Below are positions 376 through 19,145 of a stretch of DNA of 19,909 bases, one piece after another (position 1 is the stretch's first letter; every line of letters starts with the position of its first letter). This stretch comes from Candidatus Halobeggiatoa sp. HSG11 (GTDB lineage: Bacteria; Pseudomonadota; Gammaproteobacteria; Beggiatoales; Beggiatoaceae), in assembly GCA_030378105.1 (NCBI GenBank), contig JAUCGL010000088.1:1-19909 (forward strand). The letters are read 5' to 3'. The notes below the pieces were generated by a model. The model saw only the letters and a program-made list of their open reading frames with translations. It was not told the DNA's origin and did no database searches. The translations under genes and the position numbers were made by a program.

Positions 376-1089
376 TTAATCAATATTCAAATCAACCTGT
401 TGCAATAAATTTGCTCGCATTTGTCGTAACTGGCTAGAATCTTTAGAAGTTTGAATATGTTTAGATAACTCATCCAAAGCATCATACCAAAAACCATGTT
501 TAGCATAAATCAATGGCAATTTGTCTTTAGAACTAGCCTTTAATTCCGTAGTTAATTGAGCAGTTGGTTTAATCCGTATTATGCTGCCAGTAGCACTGAC
601 ATCTAAACTGGGATAATCTTTATGGCAATTAATGGACAAATTAATTTGGTATTTGATTCCCGGTATTAATTCAAAATCTGGTATCGGCAAAGCCTGTATC
701 CCTTTGGAAACTGACATTTTAAATTCCTTTTTAACTAACGGTGGGGCAAATTCAAAATCATTATCTGTAGCCAATTTATCTATTATTAATAACAATTCAG
801 CATCTTGCAATGGTTGCGATACCCACCAATACAAAATTGGATGAGATGATATAGTTTTACCAGTATTTTTAGGCACTAATAAACGCAAAGCAAAATCATC
901 TTGCATTTGAGTACAAGTACCACGCATACCTCGCATACCTCGCATACCACGAATTCCGCGTACATCAGCTTTAAACTCACGGACATTATCGTTAAATTCT
1001 GCCCCTTGATAAGAAATTTTATCCAATGCAGTCACATTCATTACAGCAAACATTGCTAGACTTAAAGTTATAAATTTGATACTATTCAT
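376..1089 (-). CDS. Secreted hypothetical protein with an N-terminal signal peptide and an internal RGI/RGM/RGM/RGM/RGT tripeptide repeat. A DUF928-like family is possible but cannot be verified from sequence alone.
   Basis: ORF 376..1116; the likely true start is the internal Met (MNSIKFITLSLAMFAVMNVTA|LD) at 1089, preceded by GAGGA 8 nt upstream. Hydrophobic h-region followed by an AxA-like cleavage site. No recognisable catalytic motifs. Divergently oriented to the CHAT gene. Confidence 0.6.
   Translation of the reverse strand: MNSIKFITLSLAMFAVMNVTALDKISYQGAEFNDNVREFKADVRGIRGMRGMRGMRGTCTQMQDDFALRLLVPKNTGKTISSHPILYWWVSQPLQDAELLLIIDKLATDNDFEFAPPLVKKEFKMSVSKGIQALPIPDFELIPGIKYQINLSINCHKDYPSLDVSATGSIIRIKPTAQLTTELKASSKDKLPLIYAKHGFWYDALDELSKHIQTSKDSSQLRQMRANLLQQVDLNID
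914..958 (-). repeat. In-frame 9-bp tandem repeat (5 units, consensus cgcatacct on the + strand) encoding (RGM)n inside the secreted protein.
   Basis: Direct reading: taccacg/catacctcg/catacctcg/cataccacg/aattccgcg. The protein shows DVRGIRGMRGMRGMRGT. Confidence 0.8.
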
Positions 1090-1197
1090 AATATTTTCCT
1101 CAATATTGAATGACAAAGACCTTAATTAAGTTTTCAAAACTTAAATTGGTCTGTTGAAAATCATTTTACTACAATTTTAAAATTAGGAGTAATTTTT

Positions 1198-3405
1198 ATG
1201 ATTTCTAGGCTATTTTTTTGTGTATTAATATTATGTGTTACTGAAACGTTTGCCACTCAAAAGAGTCAAGATTTTTATCAACAAGGAAATTTTGCTCAAG
1301 CGATTCGTAATTTGGAACAATCAATAACACAATTACAACCGGGTAGTACAGAACATTTTAACGCTATTATCCGTTTAGCAGTGGCTAACCAAAAAGCTGG
1401 CAATAATTACACCACCGCTTATGATTTATTTCAACAAGCTTTGACTTTAAGTAATGATAATACGGCTCGTCAAGTTCTAGTGCATAGTTATTTAGGCGAT
1501 TTATTGCTAGTTATGCAACAATCAGACGAAGCAATAACCCAGATGGAGAAACATTTAGAGACAGCTCGTTCTTTAGATGATTCAGCGATTTTAGTCAATT
1601 TTTTGAATAATCTCGGCAATGCTTTGGCTGTTGAGCAATATTATAAATCAGCTTTTCAGATGTATCAAGAAGCAATTGAAATAGCTCAACGTATTGATAA
1701 CCAAAACTTATATATCCAAACTCTGCTCAACCAATTACGACTTGATTCTAAGTTAAATTCTTTGGAACCAAAAAAACTTGCTGAAGCAGTTACCTTGATA
1801 GAAAAACTACCTGCTAATTATGATAAGGCTTTTTATTTACTTAGTGTTGGAGAGCTATCTTTACATGGAAATGGACAACAAGCTAATAAAATATTATCCC
1901 AAGTTTTAATCTTAGCCAAAAAATATCAAAATAATCGCTTACTCTCTCATGCTAAAGGTTTTTTAGGTGAATTGTACGGACAACAACATCGCTATGATGA
2001 GGCTTTGTTATTAACAAGAGAAGCTGTTTTTGCTGCTCAAGATATTCCAGATACTTTATATATTTGGGAAACCCAGTTGGGGCATATTCTGTTGGCTCAA
2101 AAAAAATTGGCAGAAGCTTTAATAATGTTTAGACAAGCTTTAGAACATTTACAATTAATTCGCCAAAAATTGAATGTTGGTTTGCATAATTCACAAGACA
2201 ATTTTTACCAACATATTCAGCCAATTTATTACAGTATTGCAGATATTTTATTGCAACAAGCAAAACTGGCTACTGATGATAAAAAGGATTTGTTAATTCA
2301 AGCAAGAGATACAATTGAGCAATTAAAGGAAGCAGAATTGCAAGATTACTTTCAAAATGAATGTATTTCAGCAGTTAAATCTAGTATAAAACAATTAGAT
2401 AATTTGGGCGAAAATACAGCAGTGTTTTACCCTATATTATTGAAAAATCGCATAGAATTATTAATTAATATAGGAACTGAATTAAAGCAAGTTGTCATTC
2501 CAGTTTCTCATGCGGAAGTCAATGCAACAGTGTTGGAATTTCGTTCTAATTTACAACGGACTACAGAAGGTAGTTTTATCGTACAAGCCAAACAGCTTTT
2601 TCAATGGTTAATCGCTCCTTTACAAGAGGAATTTGATAAGCATAAAATTAACACGTTGATAATTGTTCCAGACGGTATATTGCGTACTATTCCTATGTCT
2701 GCGTTATATAATCCAACTAAAAAACGTTTTCTGTTTCATCAATTTGCTTTGGTGACAACTCCTAGTTTAAGACTAACCGATCCGCATAAACTGCCTCGCA
2801 AAAATGTCCAAATAATGTTAAATGGTCTATCGGAAGCCGTGCAGGGTTTTACTCCGTTACCAAATGTTATACAAGAGATTGAACAGATTGATAATATTTT
2901 TAACAAAAAGGAAGTGTTATTAAATAAGGATTTTTCACTGGAAGCAGTTAATCAGGCTCTACAAGCTGCTCCTTATGAAATTATACATATTTCTTCACAT
3001 GGTCAATTTGATCGTAATCCTAAGAAAAGTTTTTTACTTACCTATGATAGCAAGTTGACAATGGATCGATTGGAAAAATTATTTCGAGTAACTGGATTAA
3101 GGAAGAAACAGGTAGAGTTATTGACTTTGAGTGCTTGTCAAACGGCTGTTGGTGATGAAAGGGCTGCATTAGGATTGGCCGGTGTGGCACTTAAGGCTGG
3201 GGCAAGAAGTGCGTTGGCAAGTCTTTGGTTTGTGGATGATGAAGCAACTTCTCAATTGATAGCTGAATTTTATCAACAGTTGCAAAATCCAGAATTATCC
3301 AAAGCTCAAGCTTTGCAAAATGCTCAACGGAAATTGGCTAAACAAAGACGTTTTCGACATCCAGCTTATTGGGCTCCATTTTTGTTGATTGGGAATTGGT
3401 TGTAA
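1198..3405 (+). CDS. TPR-repeat + CHAT domain (caspase-like, clan CD) protein with a predicted Sec signal peptide.
   Basis: 735 aa. N-terminus MISRLFFCVLILCVTETFA|TQ is signal-peptide-like. The N-terminal ~450 aa are TPR-like helical repeats (AxxAxxxY/LxxAL patterns). The C-terminus carries CHAT hallmarks: the His motif IHISSHGQF (His codon 2998..3000) and the Cys motif LLTLSACQTAVGDE (Cys codon 3136..3138), followed by SALASLWFVDD. AGGAG lies upstream of the ATG. Confidence 0.85.
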   Translation: MISRLFFCVLILCVTETFATQKSQDFYQQGNFAQAIRNLEQSITQLQPGSTEHFNAIIRLAVANQKAGNNYTTAYDLFQQALTLSNDNTARQVLVHSYLGDLLLVMQQSDEAITQMEKHLETARSLDDSAILVNFLNNLGNALAVEQYYKSAFQMYQEAIEIAQRIDNQNLYIQTLLNQLRLDSKLNSLEPKKLAEAVTLIEKLPANYDKAFYLLSVGELSLHGNGQQANKILSQVLILAKKYQNNRLLSHAKGFLGELYGQQHRYDEALLLTREAVFAAQDIPDTLYIWETQLGHILLAQKKLAEALIMFRQALEHLQLIRQKLNVGLHNSQDNFYQHIQPIYYSIADILLQQAKLATDDKKDLLIQARDTIEQLKEAELQDYFQNECISAVKSSIKQLDNLGENTAVFYPILLKNRIELLINIGTELKQVVIPVSHAEVNATVLEFRSNLQRTTEGSFIVQAKQLFQWLIAPLQEEFDKHKINTLIIVPDGILRTIPMSALYNPTKKRFLFHQFALVTTPSLRLTDPHKLPRKNVQIMLNGLSEAVQGFTPLPNVIQEIEQIDNIFNKKEVLLNKDFSLEAVNQALQAAPYEIIHISSHGQFDRNPKKSFLLTYDSKLTMDRLEKLFRVTGLRKKQVELLTLSACQTAVGDERAALGLAGVALKAGARSALASLWFVDDEATSQLIAEFYQQLQNPELSKAQALQNAQRKLAKQRRFRHPAYWAPFLLIGNWL

Positions 3406-3414
3406 GTTGGTTGT

Positions 3415-3655
3415 TTGAATCAGAATTAACAGAATTATAGAATTTTCAGGATAAATTCACAAACTTATTTGGTTTAATCCTGTCAATCCTGATTCTGACA
3501 ATTAATTCTCAAACAGTTGCAAATCATATAATTTTCTGGTTAAATAGATTGTAAGTAGCTTGTGGGCAGTTTTTCGACAACCCCAAGCCTAGACAATTAA
3601 CTATTATCACTAGTCTTGCCGTGCAATCATTATAGCATGGTGACTTGCTTCCAAA
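3415..3655 (-). mobile_element. Truncated IS1-family remnant: the 3' part of the insB-like transposase ORF plus the IS end. About 85% identical to 10124..10335.
   Basis: Direct alignment to 10124..10335 (shared tgcaaatcatataattttctggttaaatag and caaccccaagcctagacaattaactat...tagtcttgccgtgcaatcatta). That region on the minus strand encodes the InsB-like C-terminus CTARLATIVNCLGL. Confidence 0.55.
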
Positions 3656-3664
3656 GGCAAATTT

Positions 3665-4675
3665 ATGTTATCACATTTATATATTGTTCAATCTAAAAAT
3701 GGTCTAATCAAAATAGGCCGTAGTAAATGTCCCAAAAGACGTATCACTGAAATAGCTAAAGCCACCGGTACAAAAGTTATTAAGCAACATATATCTCCAC
3801 TCTGTTTGAATGCCCATAAAATTGAGCGGTATTTACATAAACATTTTGCTAAACATCGACAAGAAGGTGAATGGTTTGATATTGATTTTGAAACAGCTGT
3901 TGACGAAGCTGAAAAACAGAAATTCCAAACTGAAGAGCCAAGTAAAATGATGCCATTTGAATTTAATGGTGACAAAATACGTACTTTGACTGATGAAAAA
4001 GGTGAACCTTGGTTTGTAGCTAAAGATGTTTGTAAAGTTGTAGAAATTAGTAAATACCGTGATGCTATTGCAAAACTTGATGATGATGAAAGGATGTCCA
4101 TGATTGTGGACACCCTTGGTGGAAAGCAAAGAATGGTGTGTGTTAATGAATTTGGATTATACACACTCATACTCATGTCACAAAAACCTCAAGCTAAACA
4201 AGTTCGGCGTTGGGTAACTCACGAAATCCTCCCAAGTATCCGCAAAACTGGCCAGTATTCTATTCCAACTAATCAACAACTGAAAGGTAAAGTTGAGCAG
4301 AAGACTTTTGAGAGTTTCATTGCTGACTGTTTTATTCCCGATTCAACCAATAAGGAAAGAGCTAGAGATATTTATTTAATTTATCAAGGTTGGTGTTTGC
4401 AGAATAAATGTGAGGCTCGAACAATTCAATGGGTTGGAATGCAACTAAGGAAACAAGGTTATGGTAAAAGCAAATGTCCACCTAATGGTGTGGCCTGTTG
4501 GCATGGATTCCGACTGAATAATTTGGCTTGCCCAGCCAATCCAAGTAATTTGGAGGATTTACAGAGCTATCTATCTGCTTTGAGTAAAAATCTCGCTACT
4601 GGAATGCAATATTCTAATACGGAGTTATTGAGTTTGATTAATACTGCTAATCAGAAGGTTATGGCAATTCAATAA
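3665..4675 (+). CDS. Phage-like protein with an N-terminal T5orf172/GIY-YIG-like domain, a central Bro-N (BRO family N-terminal, antirepressor-type) domain, and a Cys-rich C-terminal region of unknown function.
   Basis: N-terminus: LYIVQSKNGLIKIGRSKCPKRRITEI...EGEWFDIDFETAVDEAEK, the T5orf172/MUG113-like motif (IKIG.S..P..R...L). Middle: FEFNGDKIRTLTDEKGEPWFVAKDVCKVVEI...VDTLGGKQRMVCVNEFGLYTLILMSQKPQAKQVRRWVTHEILPSIRKTGQY, the canonical Bro-N pattern. AGG lies 7 nt upstream of the ATG. Flanked by IS-end repeats. Confidence 0.75.
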   Translation: MLSHLYIVQSKNGLIKIGRSKCPKRRITEIAKATGTKVIKQHISPLCLNAHKIERYLHKHFAKHRQEGEWFDIDFETAVDEAEKQKFQTEEPSKMMPFEFNGDKIRTLTDEKGEPWFVAKDVCKVVEISKYRDAIAKLDDDERMSMIVDTLGGKQRMVCVNEFGLYTLILMSQKPQAKQVRRWVTHEILPSIRKTGQYSIPTNQQLKGKVEQKTFESFIADCFIPDSTNKERARDIYLIYQGWCLQNKCEARTIQWVGMQLRKQGYGKSKCPPNGVACWHGFRLNNLACPANPSNLEDLQSYLSALSKNLATGMQYSNTELLSLINTANQKVMAIQ

Positions 4676-4677
4676 TG

Positions 4678-4712
4678 TCTGAATCAGGATTTTCAGGATA
4701 AATTCACAAGCT
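4678..4712 (+). repeat. Solo IS1-like end fragment (ctgaatcaggattttcaggataaattcacaagct).
   Basis: Matches the ends of the 3415, 7437 and 10124 copies. Confidence 0.6.
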
Positions 4713-4806
4713 ATAGACATTCATAAAAATACATTTGTGTGAAACCTGCGAGGTTTTGGAAACCTCGTAGGTTTTTGTGAAGTTATTTATCTGAAAAACT
4801 ATAGTT
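4706..4806 (+). repeat. Hairpin-containing ~100-bp MITE-like element (family H). Core hairpin: aaacctgcgagg-ttttggaaa-cctcgtaggttt.
   Basis: Near-perfect 12-bp stem with one G-U pair. Whole element matches the reverse complement of 10878..10985. The hairpin module is related to 17984..18018. Confidence 0.7.
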
Positions 4807-4855
4807 TTGTTTCATCCTGTCCATCCTTTAATCCGTTAAATCCTATTCAAAACAC

Positions 4856-7408
4856 TTAAATATTACTCACCAACAATTCTGGCCGACAACTTGTCCAATC
4901 AACCTGTTTAGCTTCTTTAACTTCAGTTTTTAAATCAATATCTTCTTCCTCTTCAATAAGCACTAATTCGTTAGCAATAAAATCGGCTGGGGAAGGTTGG
5001 CTGCCAGTTAAATGGAATACATAGAAAGTGCTTGGTTCCATTATGTCTTCAATGGTGCAAGGTCGTCTCATATGGGCGGCAGCATTGAGGAAATTGATAC
5101 CAAAAGCTTTTAAGGCTCCGGTTAAATCAACATCTATGGACTCAATTGCTACTTCGCCATCTAAACCCAAATTTGAGGAAGCACTTATTAAACTATTTGG
5201 AGAAGTTATGAATTGGTCAGCAACAATGCGAATATTGCCACCATGTCCTGCATCAGCTTGGGCTTTGATTTGACCTTGATTCAATACCACGAAATTGGGA
5301 TTTTCAATCGTTATATTGCCTCCATCCCCGCTACCACCTTGTACGCTGGTAGTCATTTGCCCTTCTCGCAAAAACAGTAAGTTTGGAGTGACGATAGTCA
5401 TATTACCACCGGTGGCGTGTTTGGCAGAGGTAGTGATTGTGCTACCATTGGTTATTTTTATCGTATTGGCTTGTACGGCAACATTACCGGCATTACCGGT
5501 TCCCATAGCGTTAGCTGTAATTATTCCACCATCTTTAATGTTAAGATGATTGGTTTCCACTTTAACATTCCCACCTTGTCCAATACCTAAAGATTGAGTA
5601 GAAATAGTACCAGCAGAATTGGTGATATTATCCGTAGCAATAACATGTACATTGCCACCAGGACCTTGTCCAATAAATATTTTTTTTCCTATCAAACCAC
5701 CGCTAGCACTGTTAATTTCAGAACCAGCTCCCATGAATAAATTATTTATGCTAACAGTGACATCTCCAGCTACACCTTCACCAAGCGTACCTGCACTAAT
5801 CCCGGCATAATCATCTATAATAAGATCATTAGCAGCAACAGAAATATTACCGGCAGCACCTTTACCAAAACTCATAGTGACAATGCCAGATTGGTTATTT
5901 TCAAGAGTAATCACACTGATAATAAGTAATCCTAAACGTCTTCCACTTATAGACATTGTGTTGGAGTTAATGTTTATTTTGCCGCCATTTCCATCTCTAA
6001 AAGCTGTGGATGTAATCAGACCACCACCGGTTATAATTATTTTATCGGCATTCACCGTAATGTCATTGCTGTCAGATATTCCATAATTATCGGTTGAAAT
6101 CGAACCACCAGCTATATTTAAAAGTCCAGTAGTGATAGTAATACTACCTGATTTTCCACCATTGTAGGAGGTCACAGTGGCTAAAGTACTAATATTATCT
6201 TGTTTAGTAGTACCCAGAATAACAACCCTTCCCTTTCGTCGACCTGATATAAAAACGGATTCCGTGGCATTAATATTGATATCGCCACTTTGCCCTTTGC
6301 CATAGGTCTCACTACCAACGATACCTCCTTTATCCAGTAATATTTGTTTGGCTTTGATCGATATATCACCTGCATCACCGGTATCAAAATTGGTGCTTCC
6401 AATGACGCTTCCAGTGACTGTCAAATAAGGAACATTAATAGTTATAGCACCCGCATTACCACTATCCATCGCGTCATTCATTATAGCGTAAAATTCTCCT
6501 TTAATATCAATACTATCTGTCAATTTCAGGTTAATACCCTTACCATTCTCATCGGCCATCGTCTTGGCTTGAATGACCGCATCATCCATGAAAAATTGTC
6601 CACCACGAACAAAAACACTGCCACTGCCTCTACCACTGACTTCCATTAAGGTATTATTAGCTGTTATGGTTCCACCTTCAGCATTCAAGTCTAATCCAGA
6701 CTCGCTTGGAATAACTTCACCTTGAGAAGCTACACTCGCCAAATTAATTCGTCCCGCTAGTGCAGATAATTTAGAACTAGCAAAAATCACCATGAATCCT
6801 TGTTCATCAAACACTATCGGAGAATTACCGTTCAAATTTAAATCTCCACCAATTAATGATAAAGTTTGTCCATAAGGCACAGCCAATGTACTGTCTTGTG
6901 TAGAAATTGATTTGGGAGAATCAGTCAAAAAACCAAAACTTGCAATCGGCGCAATCGTCAACAAACTATCACTCGGATTAAGCGCATCAAACCGCCCATT
7001 TTCTCCCAAACGTAAATAGTCAGCAGTGCTGGCATGAAAAGAGCCTTGCACATCCAATTGAGCATTCGGCCCAAACATAATTCCATACGGGTTAAGAAAA
7101 TACATATCTGCATTGGGAATTGTCGAACGGATTAAACCATCAATGTTAGAAGGATTGCCACCAGTTACGCGACTTAAGATATTCTGCACACTGTTTGGCC
7201 CAGAGAAGGTGGCACTTTCCGCGCTATTCAAATTAAAGTCTTGGAAGCTGTGGAAGAGATTACCTCCATGTTGTTGACCCAAATCAGCACCAATTTGAAA
7301 ATCAGGACCGGGTAAATTGATATTTTGGCCGAGTGTACCGTCAGTTACTATTTCGGCGTTGGAGGATAAAGTGATGATTAATAAAGATGCTATTGTTAAA
7401 TGTTTCAT
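4856..7408 (-). CDS. TPS-domain (haemagglutination-activity / filamentous haemagglutinin N-terminal domain) exoprotein. Gly-rich beta-helix repeat body; TpsA-like, paralog 1.
   Basis: 850 aa. Signal peptide MKHLTIASLLIITLSSNA|E. TPS hallmarks: TDGTLGQ...GGNLFHSFQDFNLNS...NILSRVTGGNPSNIDG...FLNPYGIMFGPNAQLDVQGSFHAST (NPNGI-type motif). The body is GGNI/GxG repeats. TPS domain at ~6930..7350. Confidence 0.85.
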   Translation of the reverse strand: MKHLTIASLLIITLSSNAEIVTDGTLGQNINLPGPDFQIGADLGQQHGGNLFHSFQDFNLNSAESATFSGPNSVQNILSRVTGGNPSNIDGLIRSTIPNADMYFLNPYGIMFGPNAQLDVQGSFHASTADYLRLGENGRFDALNPSDSLLTIAPIASFGFLTDSPKSISTQDSTLAVPYGQTLSLIGGDLNLNGNSPIVFDEQGFMVIFASSKLSALAGRINLASVASQGEVIPSESGLDLNAEGGTITANNTLMEVSGRGSGSVFVRGGQFFMDDAVIQAKTMADENGKGINLKLTDSIDIKGEFYAIMNDAMDSGNAGAITINVPYLTVTGSVIGSTNFDTGDAGDISIKAKQILLDKGGIVGSETYGKGQSGDININATESVFISGRRKGRVVILGTTKQDNISTLATVTSYNGGKSGSITITTGLLNIAGGSISTDNYGISDSNDITVNADKIIITGGGLITSTAFRDGNGGKININSNTMSISGRRLGLLIISVITLENNQSGIVTMSFGKGAAGNISVAANDLIIDDYAGISAGTLGEGVAGDVTVSINNLFMGAGSEINSASGGLIGKKIFIGQGPGGNVHVIATDNITNSAGTISTQSLGIGQGGNVKVETNHLNIKDGGIITANAMGTGNAGNVAVQANTIKITNGSTITTSAKHATGGNMTIVTPNLLFLREGQMTTSVQGGSGDGGNITIENPNFVVLNQGQIKAQADAGHGGNIRIVADQFITSPNSLISASSNLGLDGEVAIESIDVDLTGALKAFGINFLNAAAHMRRPCTIEDIMEPSTFYVFHLTGSQPSPADFIANELVLIEEEEDIDLKTEVKEAKQVDWTSCRPELLVSNI

Positions 7409-7436
7409 TTTGTTTTCCGAATAAAGATTAACATAA

Positions 7437-7517
7437 TTATAGGATTTTCAGGATAAATTCACAAGCTAGTTTTATTCCATCTTGTTAATCCTCAAATTCT
7501 GTAAATCCTGATTCAGA
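7437..7517 (+). repeat. ~80-bp IS1-end-derived MITE-like element with imperfect terminal inverted repeats (aggattttcagga ... tcctgattcagac). Forms the 5' leader of TpsA paralog 1.
   Basis: Aligns with 10149..10210 (ttttcaggataaattcacaagctagtttt[a/g]ttccatc[t/c]tgttaat). Sits 29–110 nt upstream of the 7408 start, the same spacing as the copy upstream of paralog 2. Confidence 0.6.
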
Positions 7518-7526
7518 CAAAGACAA

Positions 7527-10103
7527 TCATTTTTTACAAGTTAAAGAAGCCAATTTTTCAGTTGAATTTTTAACCGAAACTGTTGTTTTAATAGGCAATA
7601 TTTCGGATAACAACGGTCCACTTGGCAATAAATCGTCCAATGAGTTAGGCGAACCTTCACTTGGTATAACAACAAAGCTACTCATATTTTCAGTTATCCT
7701 TTGACCACAAGGAGTTTTCATTTGATTACTAGCATCCACAACTTTATCTGGTAACACAACCAAAAAACCATCCAAATCAACATCTATAGACTCAATTGCT
7801 ACTTCACCATCCAAACCCAAATTTGAGGAAGCACTGATTAAACTATTTGGAGAGGTAATGAACTGTTCAGATTTAATACTTATGTTACCACCATGTCCTG
7901 CATCAGCTTGTGTTTTGATTTTGCCTTGATTTAACACTACAAAATTAGGATTTTTGATGGTGATGTTACCGCCACTTCCTACTCCCTTTGCAACACTGGT
8001 GGTTATTTCACTATTATTCAAATAAAGCAGTCTTGAAAGATTTGTTAATTCGATATTTCCTCCACCTGATAGAGTTGAGGCGGTACTTATGTTAGCATTT
8101 TCAGTTAATTGTATCTGTTGTGCTTGTAAATTAATTTGGCCAGCATCGCCAATACCATAAGCACGAGCGGAGATAGCTGAATCACCTTTAATATCCAAAA
8201 AATCGGTTTGTAAATTAATATTACCGCCTAGCCCATGAGTGTAGGTGTCAGTGAAAATTCCTGTTTGATTCGCTTGCGAATGTTGAGTAGTTAAACTAAT
8301 ATATTTTGATCGAATGTTGATACCACCACCATGTCCAACACCTATAAGCATTTCTGAAGTCGATATATCGTAAATACTATTACTCGCATTGATTTGCCCA
8401 CCTTCAGTGAGAATCAAATTTTCAGTTTGTAGGTCAATAGTACTAATTTTTTCACCCAAACCAAGTGATGATGCAGTAATTGAACCTTCCTCAGTCAAAT
8501 GAATGGTTTTGGCTTTCAACTTCAACTGTCCACCAGTACCAAGTAAAGAAAGACTTTGAATGCTACTTGTATTATGATTAACTTCCTGATTAGTACTTGG
8601 TAGAAAAATAATACCATCCCGTCGTCCAGATAAAAACAAGGTATCAGCCACATCTAATTGAATACTACCCGCTAATCCAAGGTCAGCCGCTGAAGTTGCA
8701 ATAAAGGCACCTGCTGTTAGATTGATATTATTCGCTTGAATATGAATATTAGCTGCATTACCTACACTAAAACTTGCACTAGTAATAATTCCTCCAACCA
8801 TATCAAGTTGTTGAGTGTTAATATCAATATTGCCTCCTAACCCTGATGAATAAGTCGTACTATCAATATAAGAGGGTAAATCTATAAACGGTACTCCATT
8901 GCGTATCCCACTTCCAACACCATATCCTGATATTAAAATAGATTCAGTTGCTTTAATAGTTAATAAACCACTTTTCCCACCAACAGATGCGTTAGAGATA
9001 CCAGCTCCATTTAAGAGAGATAACTGAGCTACTTCTATGTCAGTATTTCCACCAATAGTTTCTGCCATTGGATTGGCTGATATAGCTACTCTATCCAATA
9101 CTAATTTTGGTACTTTAATGGTTATTGAACCACCATGACCACTTCCAAATGCTTTGCTAGAAAAAGATTGAAGTCCAAGATGGTTCGGGTCACTAGTAGC
9201 ATATAATAATTCTGTCAATTGAATATCCATGAGGCCCCCATCGAAGTCTCCCAAAGTATTAGTTTGCAAGGCACTATCTTGCATTTGTAACCACCCACCA
9301 CGAATTTTAAGGTTGCCACTGCCTAAGCTACTGGTATCCACTAGAGTACGATTGAGAGAAATGTCGCCTCCTTGTCCGGTGATGGTTAAATCATTATTAC
9401 TCACAATCACTTCGCCACTCGAACCAATTGCTGTTAGATTGAGTGTACCGCCAGTGGTTTTGAGGAAGGAAGTTGCAAAGGTCGCATAAATATTCAAGTC
9501 ATCAAATTGGATTGGCAAAGTTCCCTGTAATTGTAAATCTCCACCAATTAATGACAAGGATTTGAATGGCGGAACTAACAAAGTACTGTCCTGCGTGGTA
9601 ATTGGAGCTGGTGAATCACCAAGGAATCCAAATGCTTCAATTGGAGCAATGGTCAACAAACTGTCACTCGGATTGCGAACATCAAACCGGCCATTTTCCC
9701 CCAAACGTAAATAATCAGCAGTGCTGGCATGAAAGCTTCCTTGTATGTCTAATTGAGCATTTGGCCCAAACATAATTCCATATGGATTGAGGAAATAGAA
9801 ATTTGCATTGGGAATTGTTGAGCGAAGTAGCCCATCAATATTGGATGGATTGCCACCAGTTACCCGACTGATTATATTTTGCACTGAATTTGGCCCAGAA
9901 AATGTTGCTGATTCTGAACTATTCAAGTTAAAGTCTTGGAAGCTGTGGAATAGGTTGCCGCCGTGTTGCTGGCCTAAATCTGCTTCGATTTGAAAATCGG
10001 GGCCGGGTAGGTTAATATTTTGGCCGAGTGTGCCATCAGTGATAACTTCGGCGTTGATTGATAGAGAAGTGACTAATAAAGGTATAGTTATTAAGTATTT
10101 CAT
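7527..10103 (-). CDS. TPS-domain exoprotein, paralog 2 (TpsA-like).
   Basis: 858 aa. N-terminal ~185 aa are ~90% identical to paralog 1, including all TPS motifs. Conserved C-proximal block GGNITIKNPNFVVLNQGKIKTQADAGHGGNI...SPNSLISASSNLGLDGEVAIESIDVDL. Divergent central Gly-rich repeats and a divergent 81-aa tail. AAGGA SD. Confidence 0.85.
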   Translation of the reverse strand: MKYLITIPLLVTSLSINAEVITDGTLGQNINLPGPDFQIEADLGQQHGGNLFHSFQDFNLNSSESATFSGPNSVQNIISRVTGGNPSNIDGLLRSTIPNANFYFLNPYGIMFGPNAQLDIQGSFHASTADYLRLGENGRFDVRNPSDSLLTIAPIEAFGFLGDSPAPITTQDSTLLVPPFKSLSLIGGDLQLQGTLPIQFDDLNIYATFATSFLKTTGGTLNLTAIGSSGEVIVSNNDLTITGQGGDISLNRTLVDTSSLGSGNLKIRGGWLQMQDSALQTNTLGDFDGGLMDIQLTELLYATSDPNHLGLQSFSSKAFGSGHGGSITIKVPKLVLDRVAISANPMAETIGGNTDIEVAQLSLLNGAGISNASVGGKSGLLTIKATESILISGYGVGSGIRNGVPFIDLPSYIDSTTYSSGLGGNIDINTQQLDMVGGIITSASFSVGNAANIHIQANNINLTAGAFIATSAADLGLAGSIQLDVADTLFLSGRRDGIIFLPSTNQEVNHNTSSIQSLSLLGTGGQLKLKAKTIHLTEEGSITASSLGLGEKISTIDLQTENLILTEGGQINASNSIYDISTSEMLIGVGHGGGINIRSKYISLTTQHSQANQTGIFTDTYTHGLGGNINLQTDFLDIKGDSAISARAYGIGDAGQINLQAQQIQLTENANISTASTLSGGGNIELTNLSRLLYLNNSEITTSVAKGVGSGGNITIKNPNFVVLNQGKIKTQADAGHGGNISIKSEQFITSPNSLISASSNLGLDGEVAIESIDVDLDGFLVVLPDKVVDASNQMKTPCGQRITENMSSFVVIPSEGSPNSLDDLLPSGPLLSEILPIKTTVSVKNSTEKLASLTCKK

Positions 10104-10123
10104 TTTATTTTTCCTTTTAAATT

Positions 10124-10800
10124 GCCTGAATCAGGATTTTCAAAATTATAGAATTTTCAGGATAAATTCACAAGCTAGTTTTGTTCCATCCTGTTAATTC
10201 TCAAATTCTCAAACGGTTGCAAATCATATAATTTTCTGGTTAAATAGTTGGTAATTGGTTTAGGGTAGTTCGTAAACAACCCCAAGCCTAGACAATTAAC
10301 TATCGTTGCTAGTCTTGCCGTGCAATCATTATTAATCCAAAACTTCGTTGGTACATCAAGGGCAGCAAATACCCATAATTGATGTTTTTTGCTCTGTAAA
10401 ATATGACCATAATTCATCCATTTGTACGAATAGTAAATTTAGTCCAATTGTTATGCAAAGAAATGTATGAAATACTTTACTTTTTTCACCAATAGCTTCG
10501 ACCCACCGTTCAATAGTTCTGACATCATGTCCTATAATATTATGCGATCTGTCCTACAGATAATCCACAGGAACACATTTTCGCAACCATTTCATATTCA
10601 TAAAAACTACCTTGCTTTTTAAACAAGCCTGAATACCTTGTTTCTGAAAAACGATGATTACCACCATGACACTTCAACATTTGTCGGGGGATAGAGTCAG
10701 ATTTTGTTGTATAAACACCATCTTTGGTTATTGTAATTCATTGGGTCTTGGTAGCAGGGACATTTTTTATCTGGACATAAAAGTTGTATTTTTGTATTAA
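10124..10800 (-). mobile_element. Degenerate IS1-family insertion sequence (~0.7 kb) with frameshifted/stop-interrupted insA-like and insB-like reading frames.
   Basis: Minus-strand translations: ITKDGVYTTKSDSIPRQMLKCHGGNHRF (cf. IS1 InsA ...[25 protein letters not shown]) and KMCSCGLSVGQIA (HTH-like). MDELWSYF then, after a frameshift, SKKHQLWVFAALD...CTARLATIVNCLGL (cf. IS1 InsB [22 protein letters not shown]...GERTMATLGRLMSLL). The size matches IS1 (~768 bp). Comparison to IS1 is from memory, not a database search. Confidence 0.6.
10175..10760 (-). pseudogene. IS1-family transposase (insA/insB-like) pseudogene with multiple frameshifts and stops.
   Basis: As above. The tracked ORF 10175..10417 is only its 3' fragment. 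Confidence 0.55.
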
Positions 10801-10877
10801 TTTTTTCGCACATATATTACCATAATTTTATTAAGTGTTTATATCTGTATAAAATATTATGATAACATACCTGCATT

Positions 10878-10985
10878 GGTTTGTGGGGACTACCGTTTTT
10901 CAGATAAATAATTTCACTTAAAACCTACGAGGTTTCCAAAACCTAGCAGGTTTCACACGAATGTATCTTAATGGATGTCTATAGG
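10878..10985 (-). repeat. Family H hairpin element, inverted copy (aaacctacgagg-tttccaaaa-cctagcaggttt).
   Basis: Reverse complement aligns with 4706..4806 over ~100 bp, including the flanking ttatttatctgaaaaa module. Confidence 0.7.
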
Positions 10986-11075
10986 TTCACCCCTTCGGGG
11001 TTAACAATTGATTCATAAACCCTGAAAGGGTTGAATGTGAATAACCACCGATGAAATCGGTGGAATATAGTAAGT
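10978..11075 (+). ncRNA. Candidate structured RNA or repeat element (family T): three consecutive hairpins capped by UUCG, GAAA and GAAA-type loops.
   Basis: caCCCCttcgGGGG; AACCCTgaaaGGGTT; CCACCGATgaaATCGGTGG. The stable tetraloops occur only when read on the + strand. A decayed inverse copy lies at 15120..15245. Confidence 0.4.
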
Positions 11076-11111
11076 CCCATAATTTGGCATTCTTCAACAC
11101 ATATTTGACAG

Positions 11112-11206
11112 TTATTTCGGGAATGAAACGAAGTGGATTTCCCAAAATCTAAATTAAGCAATCGTTTCGGGAAATACGTTTCACTTCATTCCCGAAACAA
11201 CTGTTC
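11112..11206. repeat. Nested long-range inverted repeat: outer arms tttcgggaatgaa[acg]aagtg / cacttcattcccgaaa with a 3-nt bulge; inner atttccc / gggaaat.
   Basis: Direct reading. No ORF; gene-free region. Confidence 0.6.
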
Positions 11207-11404
11207 ACTAATTTTTAATTTTTTACATCCATAAATTGGGATACAAAAATTAGTCAAAATAGCTGTTTTTCGACAGGCTAGTCAGATTCCCATTCCCATG
11301 AGGACATGATTTCGTGGGCATGACAATTAATTATTTTTATCAACGAATCTATTATAGTCAGTCATAGGCGTTCTGGATAATTCATAACTAATTGATATAT
11401 ATAT

Positions 11405-11485
11405 TTAATTATGAATGGTTAACTGTGAATATTTAATTGTTAATGAAAGTCAAAATCATTAATAATTAACCATTCATAATTAATA
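11405..11485. repeat. 18-bp inverted repeat (ttaattatgaatggttaac ... gttaaccattcataatta) with a ~40-bp AT-rich spacer, immediately 3' of the flotillin gene.
   Basis: Direct reading. Possible terminator or protein-binding palindrome. Confidence 0.5.
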
Positions 11486-11498
11486 ATTGCTATACCAT

Positions 11499-12878
11499 TC
11501 AATCCTTATCCGCATTTGATATATCAGAATCAGTCTTTGGCTTAAGAATTTTACCAAGAGTTTCAGGTAATTCAACACCAGACATATTTGCAAATTCATG
11601 TAATGGTGGCAAAATTTTTGTGATACTAGAAATCCAATTAGCTGTTGTTGAATGATCACCATTAGCTGTATCCATAACCACAATTTTATCAAACTTAATA
11701 TTGCTGATAGCTTTGGATTGAGCATCAACAATTTTTGGTAATTGCTCAATAACCATCAGAGTTGCGGCCTTATCTGGATCGCCACCAATAGCAGCTACAA
11801 TAGCCTTGAAACCATCAGCTTTTTTAGCCATTTGCTCATAGATACCTTTGGCTTGTCCAGACATTTCTGCTTTCAGTGCTTCACCTTTACCCTGCCCGTC
11901 AAGAACCATCTGAGCTTTTTTAGCTTCTGCATCAATAATTTGTTTATCTTTTGCAATTTCTGCTGGTACAACAACATCAGCTTGTTGAGTTGCACGTTCT
12001 CGTTCTGCACGAGCAACTTCAGCTTGCTGTTCTGCTACATAACCAGCTTCTTGAGCTGCTGCGGTTTGTACTGCTTCGGCAGAATCACCACGCCGTTTAG
12101 CATCTGCTTCTGCTTCTCGACGATCAGCGTTGGAATTAGCTTCAACAACCATTGCTTTATTTTCACCAGTTATAGCTCGTGCATTAGCATCAGCAACATT
12201 AACTCGTTCTTCTTGTTTAGCATTTGCGGAACCAGTTTCACCATCTCGCTGTTGTTGAGCAACTTGAACTTTAGCACGGTTAATCGCTTCAGCAGCAGCT
12301 TTTTCACCCAAAGCTTTCAAATAGCCTGATTCGTCAGTGATATCAGCAATATTGACATTAATAAGCCGTAAACCAATTTTTTTCAGTTCACTTTCGATAT
12401 TTTCCATCACTTTCTGGCTAAACGTGTCACGATCAGCATTGATTTCTTCAATATTCATCGTTGCGATAGTTGCTCGCAATTGGCCTAAAATAATTTCTTG
12501 GGCCATTGCTTCAAGAGCGTCTGGAGTGAGGCCGAGTATACGAATGGAAGCATTGTGCATAAGCTCTTCAGTAGTGCCAATACCAAAAGTAAATTTGGAA
12601 GGAACATTGACACGAATATTTTGTTTAGAAAGAGCTGATTTTAATGGAACATCGGTGGTTATTGGAGTTAAATCCAAATAGGAATATTGCTGGATAAATG
12701 GCCACACAAATGCGGCTCCACCATGAATTGGTAACGCAGATTTGCCGGCACCAATTTTACCATATTTAACTAGAATTTTATTGGAAGGACAGGTTTTATA
12801 ACGGCCAACAAATATTGAAAAAAAACCTATGATAAACAAACCAATGATGACTGCGACTACTATATAATATGTAAACAT
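11499..12878 (-). CDS. Flotillin-like SPFH/Band-7 domain protein (YqiK/FloT family).
   Basis: 459 aa. N-terminal TM helix (YYIVVAVIIGLFIIGFFSIFV). SPFH core, then a long Ala/Glu/Gln-rich coiled coil (EAEADAKRR...AEQQAEVARAERERA) and a flotillin C-terminal region. Confidence 0.85.
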   Translation of the reverse strand: MFTYYIVVAVIIGLFIIGFFSIFVGRYKTCPSNKILVKYGKIGAGKSALPIHGGAAFVWPFIQQYSYLDLTPITTDVPLKSALSKQNIRVNVPSKFTFGIGTTEELMHNASIRILGLTPDALEAMAQEIILGQLRATIATMNIEEINADRDTFSQKVMENIESELKKIGLRLINVNIADITDESGYLKALGEKAAAEAINRAKVQVAQQQRDGETGSANAKQEERVNVADANARAITGENKAMVVEANSNADRREAEADAKRRGDSAEAVQTAAAQEAGYVAEQQAEVARAERERATQQADVVVPAEIAKDKQIIDAEAKKAQMVLDGQGKGEALKAEMSGQAKGIYEQMAKKADGFKAIVAAIGGDPDKAATLMVIEQLPKIVDAQSKAISNIKFDKIVVMDTANGDHSTTANWISSITKILPPLHEFANMSGVELPETLGKILKPKTDSDISNADKD

Positions 12879-12968
12879 AATTTAACCCTTGTTAGTTTAT
12901 AAGAATGACTATGAATGGTTTTATATATTAACTCATTGTTATTTGAGCATAAAACAGGATTTAATGCT

Positions 12969-12992
12969 CCTCTCCTTGATTAAGGAGAGGTA
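12969..12992 (-). terminator. Stem-loop (cctctcctt-gat-taaggagagg) downstream of rpiA. A weak intrinsic terminator or a leader structure for the flotillin gene.
   Basis: 9-bp perfect stem; the downstream T-tract is poor. Confidence 0.3.
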
Positions 12993-13020
12993 AGGAAAGA
13001 GCAGAAATTATGAGAAATAA

Positions 13021-13677
13021 CTACTCTAAAATTTTAACGCCATCATCACTTCCCAACAACAATACATCAGCCCCACGAGCTGCAAATAAACCATTTGTCA
13101 CCACACCAGTTATTTGATTAAGTTTAGTCTCTAAAGCAACTGGTTCACTTATTTGCAAATTGTGTATATCTAAGATTAAATTACCATTATCAGTAACAAA
13201 ATCTTTTCTCCACATAGGTTGACCGCCAAGTTTAACTATTTCTCTTGCGACATAACTACGTGCCATTGGAATAACTTCAACTGGTAGCGGAAATTTACCA
13301 AGCATATCAACTAATTTACTATCATCAGCTATACACACAAACCGTTTACTTACCGCAGCCACTATTTTTTCACGAGTTAAGGCTCCACCACCACCTTTAA
13401 TCAAATGTAAATGGCGATTGGATTCATCAGCACCATCAATATACACAGAAATTTCATCCACACCATTTAAATCCAATACTGGAATTCCATGTGATTTCAA
13501 TCTTTCCGCAGTAGCATCGGAACTAGCAACTGTCCCTTCAATTTTATGCTTAATTGCAGCCAAAGCATCAACAAAATGATTAGCTGTACTACCAGTACCA
13601 ATACCAATTATTGTATTTTCAACAACATATTCTAAAGCTGCCTTTGCAACTTGTTGTTTTTTTTCATCTGGGGTCAA
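13021..13677 (-). CDS. rpiA: Ribose-5-phosphate isomerase A.
   Basis: 218 aa. GIGTGSTA motif, DGADE and [11 protein letters not shown] motifs typical of RpiA. Confidence 0.9.
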
Positions 13678-13692
13678 AATATAATTCTCCGT

Positions 13693-14472: not shown

Positions 14473-14654
14473 AATTATCCTATTTTGTTTAATGTAATAA
14501 AAATTTTGGAAAACATTTTGCAAGAAATTAAGAATTAATTAAATATTTAAAATTATAATTTTTCATGCAGTTTATTTTAACTTAAAATTAGATATAATTA
14601 TTTATATTTAGTTGCTATAATATTAACCAAGTAATATAAAAATTATATTCAATT

Positions 14655-15026: not shown

Positions 15027-15119
15027 GACAGTCTTCTATGATTATTAGGATGGATAACAGAAATTTCATGATGTCCACAGAACATCCATATTCCGTATAT
15101 CAGTTATTAACTTAAGATT

Positions 15120-19109: not shown

Positions 19110-19145
19110 AATTGATTATCTCTTTTGGGTAGTATTGAATAAAGA

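Follow-up and report, generated by a model that had tools for sequence, protein, structure and literature searches.

A DUF928, TPR-CHAT and TpsA gene locus of Candidatus Halobeggiatoa sp. HSG11, very probably belonging to a five-gene cell-envelope module

Genes and upstream repeats of the locus

The window, which is the whole stretch of DNA that was analysed, is the entire 19.9-kb contig of Candidatus Halobeggiatoa sp. HSG11, a point missed by the original prediction, whose guess of an AT-rich, large-sulfur-bacterium host was nevertheless correct (GC 29-41%). Four genes, encoding a DUF928 protein, a TPR-CHAT protein and two TpsA-type exoproteins, lie at the coordinates given in that prediction, and the genes neighbouring them in the window are housekeeping genes. 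The features are as follows.

376-1089, minus strand: DUF928 protein, 237 aa, ATG start; PF06051
913-960, minus strand: codons of R44-C59 (RGIRGMRGMRGMRGTC); tandem repeat, included in a motif comparison of 80 DUF928 proteins
1090-1197, 108 bp: divergent intergenic region between the DUF928 and CHAT genes; divergent pairing kept in relatives
1198-3405, plus strand: TPR-CHAT protein; PF12770 (E 1.5e-68) and several TPR families
2998-3000, plus strand: catalytic His601 codon
3136-3138, plus strand: catalytic Cys647 codon
3417-3633, minus strand: orphan copy of the ~200-nt TpsA upstream repeat, matching 10128-10332; families D3, D5, D7, D9
3665-4675, plus strand: T5orf172/MUG113 (GIY-YIG-like) and Bro-N gene, an interloper; PF02498 (E 6e-25), PF10544 (E 5e-12)
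4856-7408, minus strand: TpsA1, 850 aa; PF05860 (E 1e-37), TIGR01901 (76 bits, cutoff 29)
7419-7500, minus strand: repeat element with promoter-like site at 7464-7436, about 30 nt upstream of TpsA1
7527-10103, minus strand: TpsA2, 858 aa; PF05860 (E 4e-36), TIGR01901 (73 bits, cutoff 29)
10128-10332, minus strand: repeat element with promoter-like site at 10173-10145, upstream of TpsA2

The HMM searches thus matched the expected families in the CHAT and both TpsA genes, and the tentative assignment of the first gene to DUF928 was confirmed by PF06051 (E 6.5e-31, 108 bits against a cutoff of 26); its product is identical to the NCBI entry "DUF928 domain-containing protein" of HSG11. A TTG-extended version of this ORF reaches 1116. 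Besides the signal peptide, the protein contains a disordered segment with an Arg-Gly repeat, a beta-sandwich and, at its C-terminus, a bundle of four helices. The "RGM repeat" described earlier is genuine; it spans residues 44-57 (VRGIRGMRGMRGMRG), and the underlying DNA is a 9-nt tandem repeat at 918-948. Comparison of the 80 DUF928 proteins showed that a disordered N-terminal motif, YKPPxRGAPxxRxGGGTRG, is near-universal and is altered in Beggiatoaceae, and the RGIRGMRGMRGMRGTC segment is the lineage-specific form of the family-wide motif.

The TPR-CHAT protein contains a Sec-type signal peptide, a TPR superhelix at about residues 25-390 and a CHAT caspase-like domain at 464-733, and its His/Cys dyad is intact as had been claimed, His601 and Cys647 both being invariant in 47 homologues. 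In Foldseek searches, the AF2 model (pLDDT 86.7, pTM 0.85) gave as top matches Csx29/Craspase (7y9x_B, E 2.7e-14, TMq 0.47), DdvA (8rw5/8rot, E 5e-11 to 8e-10, with a TM-score of only about 0.31) and separase (E about 1e-9). With an invariant dyad and a confident TPR-CHAT model, the protein is predicted to be protease-competent. N-termini were signal-like in 92 of 110 CHAT homologues, and the sequence suggests a periplasmic location. As for the Sec export claimed for the locus, all four proteins have a signal-peptide-like hydrophobic N-terminus, as judged by a simple hydrophobicity test and not by SignalP.

In TpsA1, a TPS domain (residues 18-237) and a divergent repeat body of the GGNI type are combined with a conserved cap near the C-terminus and a tail; TpsA2 has the same architecture. 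Each has only two cysteines, which lie in the tail 57 residues apart (C784 and C841 in TpsA1, C799 and C856 in TpsA2). The two proteins share 68-94% identity within the first 200 residues, 22-36% in their middle part and about 70% in the C-terminal cap. The orphan repeat carries a sigma-70-like TTGTGA-17-TATAAT at 3462-3434(-), directed antisense into the 3' end of the CHAT gene. The interloper between the CHAT and TpsA genes had also been overlooked. Genes with T5orf172 and Bro-N domains are characteristic of phages and mobile elements; none was present at the other module loci examined, and this gene is outside the module described below. The CHAT and TpsA genes are convergent and separated by this mobile-type gene, and each TpsA gene has its own promoter-like repeat; CHAT and TpsA are not co-transcribed in the window.

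The five-gene module and the missing partners

A DUF928-seeded scan with one genome per species yielded 79 loci; the sampling is biased, having relied on the pattern YA[EK]xG[ILF]WYD and kept the 80 matches closest to the window protein. Thirty-three loci had flanks of at least 9 kb in both directions, and among them CHAT was found at 27, CHASE2 at 29, TPS (TpsA) at 28 and TpsB at 24, with all four partners present at 21, frequently as a tight operon; the CHAT, TPS and TpsA-C-terminus classes were assigned with home-built HMMs on naive ORF calls, with Pfam spot-checks only. The Pfam check confirmed CHASE2 in 53/53 proteins (51 with a cyclase domain) and ShlB in 44/44, and the median distance from DUF928 was 130 bp for CHASE2 and 298 bp for TpsB. 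At locus L036 the order is TpsA-TpsB-CHAT-CHASE2-DUF928 with gaps of 16-53 nt, and at locus L009 the module was verified one gene at a time. Our results showed that the complete module is composed of a beta-helix type TpsA whose C-terminal cap is conserved and characteristic and whose tail contains cysteine, a ShlB/POTRA_2 outer-membrane transporter (TpsB), a Sec-exported TPR-CHAT protease, an inner-membrane CHASE2-sensor adenylate/guanylate cyclase and a small periplasmic DUF928 protein. The MAGs bearing it are labelled as about ten phyla. No published description of the module was found in the literature searched, nor any published mechanism, in agreement with the earlier statement that none had been defined.

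The linkage of CHAT, a TPS exoprotein and a small secreted protein, which had been compared to cyanobacterial-type neighbourhoods, is conserved, as the CHAT and TPS counts show, and it occurs in cyanobacterial loci (L007, L081, L087) and in many other phyla. The view of a three-component system has to be revised, as the canonical set has five members, TpsB and the Pfam-confirmed CHASE2 cyclase being the additional two, and the system is therefore better viewed as signalling-linked than as a stand-alone protease plus cargo.

The window very probably belongs to this module. Its CHAT protein shares 38-42% identity over at least 91% of the length with CHATs of complete modules from many phyla, alignment with module TpsAs showed the module-specific C-terminal region in the window TpsAs, and the divergent order of DUF928 and CHAT recurs at loci L001/L002, L156 and L169. 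The window would be a reduced and rearranged copy that kept DUF928, CHAT and two TpsAs, and is without TpsB and the CHASE2 cyclase; it thus retains three of the five components of an unstudied cell-envelope gene set that is widespread. The reported absence of TpsB from the window held in every search: a Pfam scan of 10 window ORFs gave no ShlB, POTRA or Omp85 match, tblastn with module TpsB gave a best E of 1.7, and a custom TpsB HMM gave no match at E<=10. The CHASE2 cyclase, a second expected partner that the original prediction did not consider, is likewise absent from the window. The missing TpsB is not a peculiarity of the island but a trait of the Beggiatoaceae lineage, since 0/79 related TpsA loci (816 kb) had a TpsB, or a confident CHASE2 match; for the same reason TPS secretion in Beggiatoaceae is putative.

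Comparison with known systems

In Pseudomonas aeruginosa, the TpsA adhesin CdrA of the CdrA/CdrB system is anchored at the cell surface by a C-terminal two-cysteine tail, the "cysteine hook", and LapG, a periplasmic cysteine protease, cuts this tail in an event linked to cyclic-nucleotide signalling (PMC5422565, PMC11898600, PMC7616799). The window TpsAs resemble CdrA in that the tail holds their sole pair of cysteines, and they lie beside a predicted periplasmic cysteine protease. However, LapG is transglutaminase-like (DUF920) and not a CHAT protein, and the window, unlike CdrA/CdrB, has no TpsB. LapG is controlled inside-out through the c-di-GMP receptor LapD, whereas the partner in the complete CHAT module is a CHASE2 cyclase, which makes the nucleotide, and an outside-in flow is therefore implied.

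DdvA, the only characterised periplasmic TPR-CHAT protein, carries a His-Cys dyad and has been proposed as a protease that is activated by a signal and initiates a relay across the membrane (PMC11506125). Unlike the window CHAT, which is predicted to be a soluble signal-peptide protein without a sigma/anti-sigma partner, DdvA is a membrane-anchored dimer with a fused zinc anti-sigma domain and lacks three active-site helices. Csx29 of the type III-E CRISPR Craspase and separase have a TPR superhelix followed by CHAT, the same order as in the window protein, but they are cytoplasmic and RNA-guided or cell-cycle-regulated, respectively; no Cas7-11, Csx30 or Csx31 genes are in the window.

The best structural match of the DUF928 model was the periplasmic protein MtxA of Magnetospirillum (PDB 4z29); the next gene after mtxA encodes a CHASE2 adenylate cyclase, and deletion of mtxA gave no detectable phenotype (PMC4439547). 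The likeness is in structure only, as sequence similarity is undetectable and a profile search of PDB sequences gave no match; MtxA has an additional N-terminal domain and no reported CHAT or TPS partner. The CHASE2 cyclases CyaD1/CyaD2/CyaK of S. meliloti need the outer-membrane beta-barrel NsrA in order to perceive a proteinaceous extracellular signal (PMC7529298, PMC13001267), a precedent for a relay from the outer membrane to CHASE2, but NsrA is roughly 1200 aa, belongs to another family and is not TpsB, and CHAT, DUF928 and TpsA are not known in that pathway. FhaB/FhaC-type TPS proteins share with the window TpsAs the N-terminal TPS domain, the NPxG-type motif and the beta-helix-type repeat body, and their periplasmic C-terminal region is processed by proteases (PMC5422565). 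Such classical proteins are much larger and are always accompanied by a cognate TpsB close by, whereas the window TpsAs are about 850 aa, lie on a contig without TpsB and end in a conserved cap and tail of a distinct type.

Possible roles of the CHAT protein

The best explanation overall, which we hold tentatively, is that the locus is a reduced copy of the five-gene module in which the CHAT protein has a proteolytic role. Alternatively, the neighbours are independent, amplified TpsA surface, sheath or gliding adhesins merely lying beside an unrelated CHAT-DUF928 pair without functional interaction, which we consider unlikely. The HSG11 genome encodes at least 11 TpsA-like paralogues across at least 7 contigs, and roles in adhesion, sheath or gliding were proposed for such paralogues by Mussmann et al. 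2007 (PMC1951784). Independence would also agree with the scarcity of CHAT (11/79) and DUF928 (1/79) at related TpsA loci, where tandem TpsA arrays are common, with the convergent genes, inserted mobile-type gene and separate promoter-like repeats of the window, and with the CHAT relatives of Beggiatoa alba (43% identity), Thioploca and metagenome locus L168, which are solitary, with no TpsA, TpsB, CHASE2 or DUF928 within 10 kb. But the same CHAT, DUF928 and TpsA subfamilies are linked across phyla at 27-28 of the 33 well-flanked loci, and the module-specific C-terminal region of the window TpsAs also speaks for a connection. Other CHAT paralogues in the lineage also lie next to TpsA, at 5 of 18 Beggiatoaceae-type loci with at least 3 kb flanks and at L170, the gap sometimes being 0-3 nt, and in a close relative (L156) CHAT, DUF928 and TpsA are grouped again in a different order.

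It is improbable that the locus is a periplasmic invader sensor, in which a DdvA-like TPR-CHAT protein would sense a phage or competitor protein, TpsA would be a receptor or bait at the surface and the cyclase, at loci that have one, would give the alarm. DdvA has indeed been proposed to detect a protein associated with phage (PMC11506125), the CHAT model matches DdvA and Craspase Csx29 (the latter at a rounded E of 3e-14), and the fast-diverging TpsA middle is expected of surface proteins under diversifying pressure. Yet the only PADLOC matches were CHAT to a generic TPR model and, weakly, the interloper to a candidate family, and none of its defence-system protease, toxin and effector models matched; the window CHAT contains neither an anti-sigma domain nor a transmembrane anchor and is not accompanied by an ECF sigma gene, the NCBIfam Csx29 model scored 43.9 bits against a cutoff of 300, no effector genes were found across the 79 DUF928-seeded loci, and the adjoining window genes are housekeeping. 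A CDI or polymorphic-toxin two-partner locus with CHAT as the processing or toxin-activating protease is most improbable, as its superficial likeness to CdiA or orphan toxin arrays (TPS domains and tandem TpsAs) is largely refuted by the architecture of the TpsAs, which are short (850-858 aa), without a VENN/pretoxin motif and with C-termini conserved over phyla rather than polymorphic, and neither small immunity-like ORFs after the TpsA genes, CdiB/TpsB in the window nor a toxin domain in PADLOC and Pfam scans was found. Of the "processing/maturation or conflict module" suggested originally, the first part stays the most plausible role for a periplasmic CHAT, whereas conflict, defence and toxin roles find no support.

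Within the reading as a reduced module copy, a proteolytic relay can be drawn, although we regard it as rather doubtful in its details. TpsA would cross the inner membrane via Sec and then pass through a TpsB encoded elsewhere in the genome, its conserved two-cysteine tail being retained on the periplasmic side as a CdrA-like tether. The TPR superhelix might serve as the docking site of the protease, and CHAT may cut the tail of TpsA, the disordered N-terminal stretch of DUF928 that is rich in Arg and Gly, or both. Where the module is complete, proteolysis would be converted into cAMP/cGMP synthesis by DUF928, with its MtxA-like fold, and the CHASE2 domain, which, if true, would form a signalling relay from the surface to the cytoplasm. 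The Beggiatoaceae would have lost the signalling arm from the locus and amplified the TpsA family, and in Halobeggiatoa the pair of CHAT and DUF928 most probably does no more than mature or release surface TpsAs.

A GRGGxP-like motif was present in 37/48 module TpsA tails and in 0/106 Beggiatoaceae TpsA tails, and this motif and YKPPxRGAPxxRxGGGTRG of DUF928 are candidate cleavage or docking motifs. The likeness between the two is short and possibly due to chance. A link to signalling is also seen in fusions of CHASE2-cyclase with DUF928 (P0251) and of CHAT with CHASE2 (L007).

Gene content of the island

The locus very probably belongs to a five-gene module composed of TpsA, TpsB, TPR-CHAT, CHASE2 cyclase and DUF928 genes, and it is an incomplete lineage variant of this module from which TpsB and the CHASE2 cyclase are missing. 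The window is one entire contig of 19,909 bp with a GC content of 29-41%, and the ORF layout together with the Pfam/NCBIfam scans placed the island genes where the original prediction had put them:

376-1089, minus strand: DUF928 protein (PF06051, E 6.5e-31, 108 bits)
1198-3405, plus strand: TPR-CHAT protein (PF12770, E 1.5e-68)
3665-4675, plus strand: mobile/phage-type gene with T5orf172/MUG113 and Bro-N domains
4856-7408, minus strand: TpsA-type exoprotein 1, TpsA1 (PF05860 and TIGR01901, over cutoffs)
7527-10103, minus strand: TpsA-type exoprotein 2, TpsA2 (PF05860 and TIGR01901, over cutoffs)
10104-11498: non-coding stretch of about 1.4 kb without a convincing ORF
from 11499 on: flotillin, PilZ, DUF4384 and OmpA genes (Pfam/NCBIfam families)
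from 11499 on: RpiA-like, FabI-like and class A PBP-like genes (reading of translations)

A hydrophobicity test and inspection of the translations recognized signal-peptide-like N-termini on all four island proteins, those of the two TpsAs being MKHLTIASLLIITLSSNA and MKYLITIPLLVTSLSINA, each followed by E. Both TpsAs contain the TPS secretion domain (PF05860, E 1e-37 and 4e-36; TIGR01901, 76 and 73 bits vs a cutoff of 29) and about ten GGNI-type repeats. Identity between TpsA1 and TpsA2 is 68-94% within the first 200 residues, drops to 22-36% in the repeat body and rises again to about 70% in the C-terminal cap; judging from these values, the ends are conserved and the putatively exposed middle diversifies. 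Each TpsA has only two cysteines, which lie in its tail at a distance of 57 residues (784/841 in TpsA1, 799/856 in TpsA2).

The intact CHAT dyad that had been read from the sequence was confirmed as His601 (2998-3000) and Cys647 (3136-3138); both residues are invariant among 47 CHAT homologues, and signal-like N-termini are present in 92 of 110 full-length homologues. PDB sequence searches returned no match for either DUF928 or TpsA, and for CHAT they gave TPR proteins only, so structure comparison was needed. The CHAT model is a TPR superhelix followed by the CHAT domain (pLDDT 86.7, pTM 0.85), and its Foldseek matches were Csx29/Craspase (E 2.7e-14, TMq 0.47), DdvA (E 5e-11) and separase. 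Membership in the Type III-E CRISPR Craspase was rejected, as the protein scored 43.9 bits vs the NCBIfam Csx29 cutoff of 300; Cas7-11, Csx30 and Csx31 genes were absent among the window ORFs.

An exhaustive profile search (E<=1e-3) showed that the DUF928 family comprises 6,505 clusters at 50% identity. In the AF2 model of the window protein (pLDDT 83), a signal helix and a disordered segment (residues 26-56) precede a beta-sandwich and a four-helix bundle, and the predicted fold, an Ig-like sandwich with a helical bundle, is MtxA-like. Across the family, this disordered segment nearly always carries YKPPxRGAPxxRxGGGTRG, and in the Beggiatoaceae subfamily this is replaced by (RGx)n-RG-[TA]-C, the window form being (RGx)n-RG-T-C. 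The 'RGM repeat' of the original prediction is this lineage variant, in which form the window protein has the N-terminal Arg-Gly motif of module DUF928 proteins. Tandem double-domain DUF928 proteins (444-543 aa) are common (P0129-P0136, P0143 and P0151), and several loci (L019, L034, L056 and L063) carry two DUF928 genes.

The five-gene module across genomes

The genome scan took one genome per species with a 30-sequence DUF928 alignment as the query, relied on one peptide pattern and retained the best 80 matches by similarity to the window protein, which yielded 79 loci whose flanks extend to 10 kb at most. Six-frame ORFs were classed by iterated HMMs seeded from the window and locus L009. 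Among the 33 loci with at least 9 kb on either side, CHAT was found in 27, CHASE2 in 29, a TPS-domain gene in 28, TpsB in 24 and all four in 21, where the CHAT, TPS and TpsA-C-terminus classes are home-built HMMs on naive ORF calls, spot-checked with Pfam, and the bulk check covers CHASE2 and TpsB only. That Pfam bulk check recovered CHASE2 in 53 of 53 proteins, with a class III cyclase domain in 51, and ShlB in 44 of 44 TpsB proteins, with POTRA_2 in 43. Two gene orders recur: TpsA-TpsB-CHAT-CHASE2-DUF928 with gaps of 16-53 nt (L036, L042, L052, L058, L073 and L076), and CHAT-CHASE2-DUF928 divergent from TpsB-TpsA (L009, L019, L040, L048, L080 and L083). For example, L009 has the TPR-CHAT, CHASE2-guanylate-cyclase and DUF928 genes on one strand and TpsB and TpsA divergent from them. 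Fused forms were also found, namely a CHASE2-cyclase-DUF928 protein (P0251, 932 aa) and a CHAT-CHASE2 protein (7505-9982 of L007, a cyanobacterial-type locus encoding TPR-CHAT, the CHAT-CHASE2 fusion and DUF928). P0251 may have arisen from gene calling that read through adjacent genes; a genuine fusion would need an additional membrane pass for its DUF928 to be periplasmic.

The window CHAT is 38-42% identical over at least 91% of its length to complete-module CHATs from many phyla, such as that of the Gallionella locus L022, which agrees with P0079 in contig and protein length. The window TpsAs align with module TpsAs in the TPS domain and in a specific C-terminal region, for which the module consensus is ...GGNI.I...ASS..G..G.V.I.AP..D.SG.L..LP...LDA..LLR..C.AR..G..SSFV..GRGG.P..P.G.LPS; the C-terminal cap and the Cys...SSF tail are present in the window and the GRGGxP part is missing. 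The association of CHAT, TpsA and DUF928 that had been noticed from a single contig is real and conserved, and the linkage was found across phyla. By their MAG labels, and with contigs that are possibly chimeric, the modules come from about ten phyla, including alpha-, beta- and gamma-proteobacteria, Desulfobacterota, Verrucomicrobiota, Planctomycetota (Scalindua), Nitrospirota, Nitrospinota, Rokubacteria, Acidobacteriota, Myxococcota, Chloroflexota and Cyanobacteria. Implausible host labels, i.e., Bifidobacteriaceae, Enterobacteriaceae and Akkermansia muciniphila, were seen on L024, L035, L045, L051 and L072, which suggests mis-binned or mislabelled assemblies. In the literature searched, of which coverage was partial, no paper was found that joins DUF928 with CHAT, CHAT with two-partner secretion, CHASE2 with CHAT or CHASE2 with TPS, and the TPS/CHAT/CHASE2-cyclase/DUF928 module is apparently widely distributed and undescribed in that literature.

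In contrast to the classical type Vb arrangement, in which TpsB is encoded with the exoprotein, Pfam, tblastn and a TpsB HMM at E<=10 found no TpsB (ShlB barrel and POTRA_2) in the window, as originally predicted. For the CHASE2 cyclase, tblastn of the window gave nothing better than E 2.8 and the HMM nothing at E<=10, and neither Guanylate_cyc nor CHASE2 was present among the 10 window ORFs scanned with Pfam. Close CHAT homologues came from Beggiatoaceae (Thiotrichales HSG1, Marithrix, Thioploca and Parabeggiatoa), and the divergent DUF928-CHAT pair recurs in L001/L002, L156 and L169, of which L001/L002 is the closest full-length relative (59% identity) and has a TPS gene about 9 kb away. Directly downstream of CHAT in L001/L002 is a dCache_1-HAMP-guanylate cyclase-hemerythrin gene (12655-15420, plus strand), and in that lineage the CHASE2 cyclase may have given way to a cyclase that has another sensor domain. 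In the Thioploca-type loci L004 (12346-13518) and L168 (12336-14503), a DUF4350 gene lies 8-18 nt after CHAT, joined in L168 by a MoxR-type AAA+ ATPase gene; here the same CHAT subfamily has another conserved set of partners.

A metagenome scan seeded on TpsA1 collected 79 Beggiatoaceae-type loci (816 kb in total), none of which contained TpsB even at E<=10. CHASE2 was absent from all of them at E<=1e-5, with one weak match in a relaxed scan (E 9e-5, L131); DUF928 was present in one locus and CHAT in 11. When 59 unassigned flank ORFs of 430-720 aa were searched with Pfam, ShlB, POTRA and Omp85 were absent among the families with at least two members; Guanylate_cyc was seen in three of these ORFs and Hemerythrin in two. 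The absence of TpsB is a trait of this lineage. The TpsA genes themselves are numerous: in the HSG11 genome, at least 11 TpsA-like paralogues are spread over a minimum of seven contigs, and tandem arrays of two or three full-length genes occur in 15 of the 79 loci, with truncated copies in a few. A signal-peptide TPR-CHAT of another paralogue group lies 0-1.8 kb from TpsA in 5 of the 18 loci with flanks of at least 3 kb, and in L170 a TPS gene follows CHAT at a distance of 2 nt, which indicates that the CHAT-TpsA association persists in the lineage with no TpsB, CHASE2 or DUF928 nearby. GRGGxP-like motifs were found in 37 of 48 module TpsA tails vs none of 106 Beggiatoaceae-type tails, and the alteration of both the DUF928 N-terminal and the TpsA tail motifs in Beggiatoaceae is weakly suggestive. 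Mussmann et al. (2007) reported many cyanobacteria-like haemagglutination-domain paralogues in Beggiatoa and suggested roles in adhesion, sheath and gliding, with no description of the module (PMC1951784).

Proposed mechanism and alternative explanations

The signals perceived by CHASE2 sensors are largely unidentified and TPR-CHAT proteins are little known (PMC7529298, PMC11506125). In S. meliloti, perception of a proteinaceous signal by the CHASE2 cyclases depends on NsrA, an outer-membrane protein (PMC7529298, PMC13001267). CdrA, a TpsA, is anchored in CdrB by a cysteine hook, and its periplasmic tail is cut by LapG (PMC5422565, PMC11898600, PMC7616799). With LapD/LapG the window shares only a functional analogy, the two cysteines in the TpsA tail; neither a LapG-type (DUF920, transglutaminase-like) protease nor the LapD c-di-GMP receptor was matched among the window ORFs by Pfam.

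A proteolytic relay is a possible mechanism, which we propose tentatively. TpsA would be exported by Sec and threaded through a TpsB, here encoded elsewhere, and its two-cysteine tail would remain periplasmic, where TPR-CHAT may cut the tail and/or the Arg-Gly segment of DUF928; both are candidate CHAT substrates. In complete modules, DUF928 and CHASE2 would turn this cleavage into cAMP/cGMP synthesis, a direction of signal flow that we infer because the output domain of the receptor is a cyclase. Beggiatoaceae appear to have uncoupled the signalling arm and expanded the TpsA arm, so that the role of CHAT-DUF928 there is probably limited to the maturation or release of surface TpsA.

The CHAT-DUF928 pair and the TpsA genes could instead be independent neighbours. 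The convergent orientation in the window, the T5orf172/Bro-N gene that separates CHAT from the TpsAs, the separate promoter-like repeats and the CHAT relatives which stand alone all point that way, but the cross-phylum linkage argues against it and we consider it rather improbable. The separating gene, which weakly matches the PADLOC candidate family PDC-S57 (E 8e-7), is missing from all other module loci examined and probably came in with a mobile element or a phage. An invader sensor like DdvA is still harder to sustain. DdvA is the only characterised periplasmic TPR-CHAT protein and has been proposed to act as a protease which, once activated by a signal, sets off a transmembrane relay (PMC11506125), and the structural resemblance to it is all that favours such a sensor here. 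Unlike in DdvA, a zinc anti-sigma domain and a transmembrane helix are absent from the window CHAT, whose signal peptide leads directly into the TPRs, sigma and anti-sigma genes are lacking, and the Pfam scan of the window ORFs matched no sigma-factor family. The defence-system reading of the conflict module suggested earlier was also rejected, as PADLOC returned a generic TPR model and the weak candidate-family match to the separating gene and no other defence match. A CDI/CdiBAI-like toxin locus was rejected as highly improbable, because the TpsAs have no VENN motif, their C-terminus is conserved across phyla, and the window ORF calls contain no immunity ORF and no small ORF downstream of the TpsAs.

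The proteolytic relay may be extended to a fuller reading of the complete module as a trans-envelope signalling pathway, which we regard as speculative and on balance doubtful. Here the putative surface beta-helix of TpsA, threaded through TpsB, would act as the sensor, and its engagement at the surface would expose the periplasmic tail or the DUF928 Arg-Gly motif to TPR-CHAT. The cleavage product, or the freed MtxA-like DUF928, would be the ligand, long sought, by which CHASE2 cyclases are turned on or off, and would thereby set cAMP/cGMP levels. Beggiatoaceae would have uncoupled these components and expanded the TpsA arm to serve functions at the filament surface. If true, this pathway would explain at once what DUF928, periplasmic CHAT proteases and a major class of CHASE2 receptors do. 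The window's own copy is of less importance than the module. Three large families, CHASE2, TPR-CHAT and DUF928, are encoded together with a two-partner secretion pair in a single conserved operon, in about ten phyla by MAG label, so their roles become testable. It also widens the view of type Vb substrates, which may be surface devices under regulated control by proteases and not simply adhesins or toxins. For the large sulfur bacteria, the long-noted 'cyanobacteria-like haemagglutinin' paralogues gain a defined ancestral context, which raises the question of the export route for dozens of orphan TpsA proteins.

Repeats and non-coding sequence around the island

A dispersed repeat with the core AGGATTTTCAGGATAAATTCACAAGCTA occurs at 3417-3633, 4686-4713, 7419-7500 and 10128-10332 of the window and carries a sigma-70-like TTGTGA-17-TATAAT on the minus strand. 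Two copies lie 30-45 nt upstream of the TpsA1 and TpsA2 start codons, and a third is right after the CHAT stop codon, oriented antisense into CHAT. The core recurs in L156, some 65 nt downstream of the CHAT gene, and at other places in JQIA01 contigs. A role of the 28-82-nt repeat as a TpsA-specific regulatory element was rejected. Related contigs have the repeat away from TpsA genes too, which makes it a dispersed lineage repeat with an incidental promoter-like site.

Scans of the window for Rfam families and tRNAs found none. The stretch at 10104-11498 contains several hairpins and inverted repeats (e.g., 11108-11204, and 11017-11069 paired with 15134-15186) and may be a rearrangement scar beside the TpsA array. 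Toward the end of the window, the DUF4384 protein (18525-19883, minus strand) scored exactly at the Pfam threshold (27.0 bits vs a cutoff of 27), and its gene adjoins that of an OmpA-family peptidoglycan-binding protein; fusions of DUF4384 to caspase-like proteins of bacteria are frequent. REP-like double-hairpin elements (ACCTGCGAGGTTTTGGAAACCTCGTAGGTTTT and variants) were located at gene ends (4741-4794, 10920-10954, 17988-18019 and 19149-19180), and the sequence at 4708-4805 recurs in inverted form at 10889-10987, with a complementarity of about 90%.
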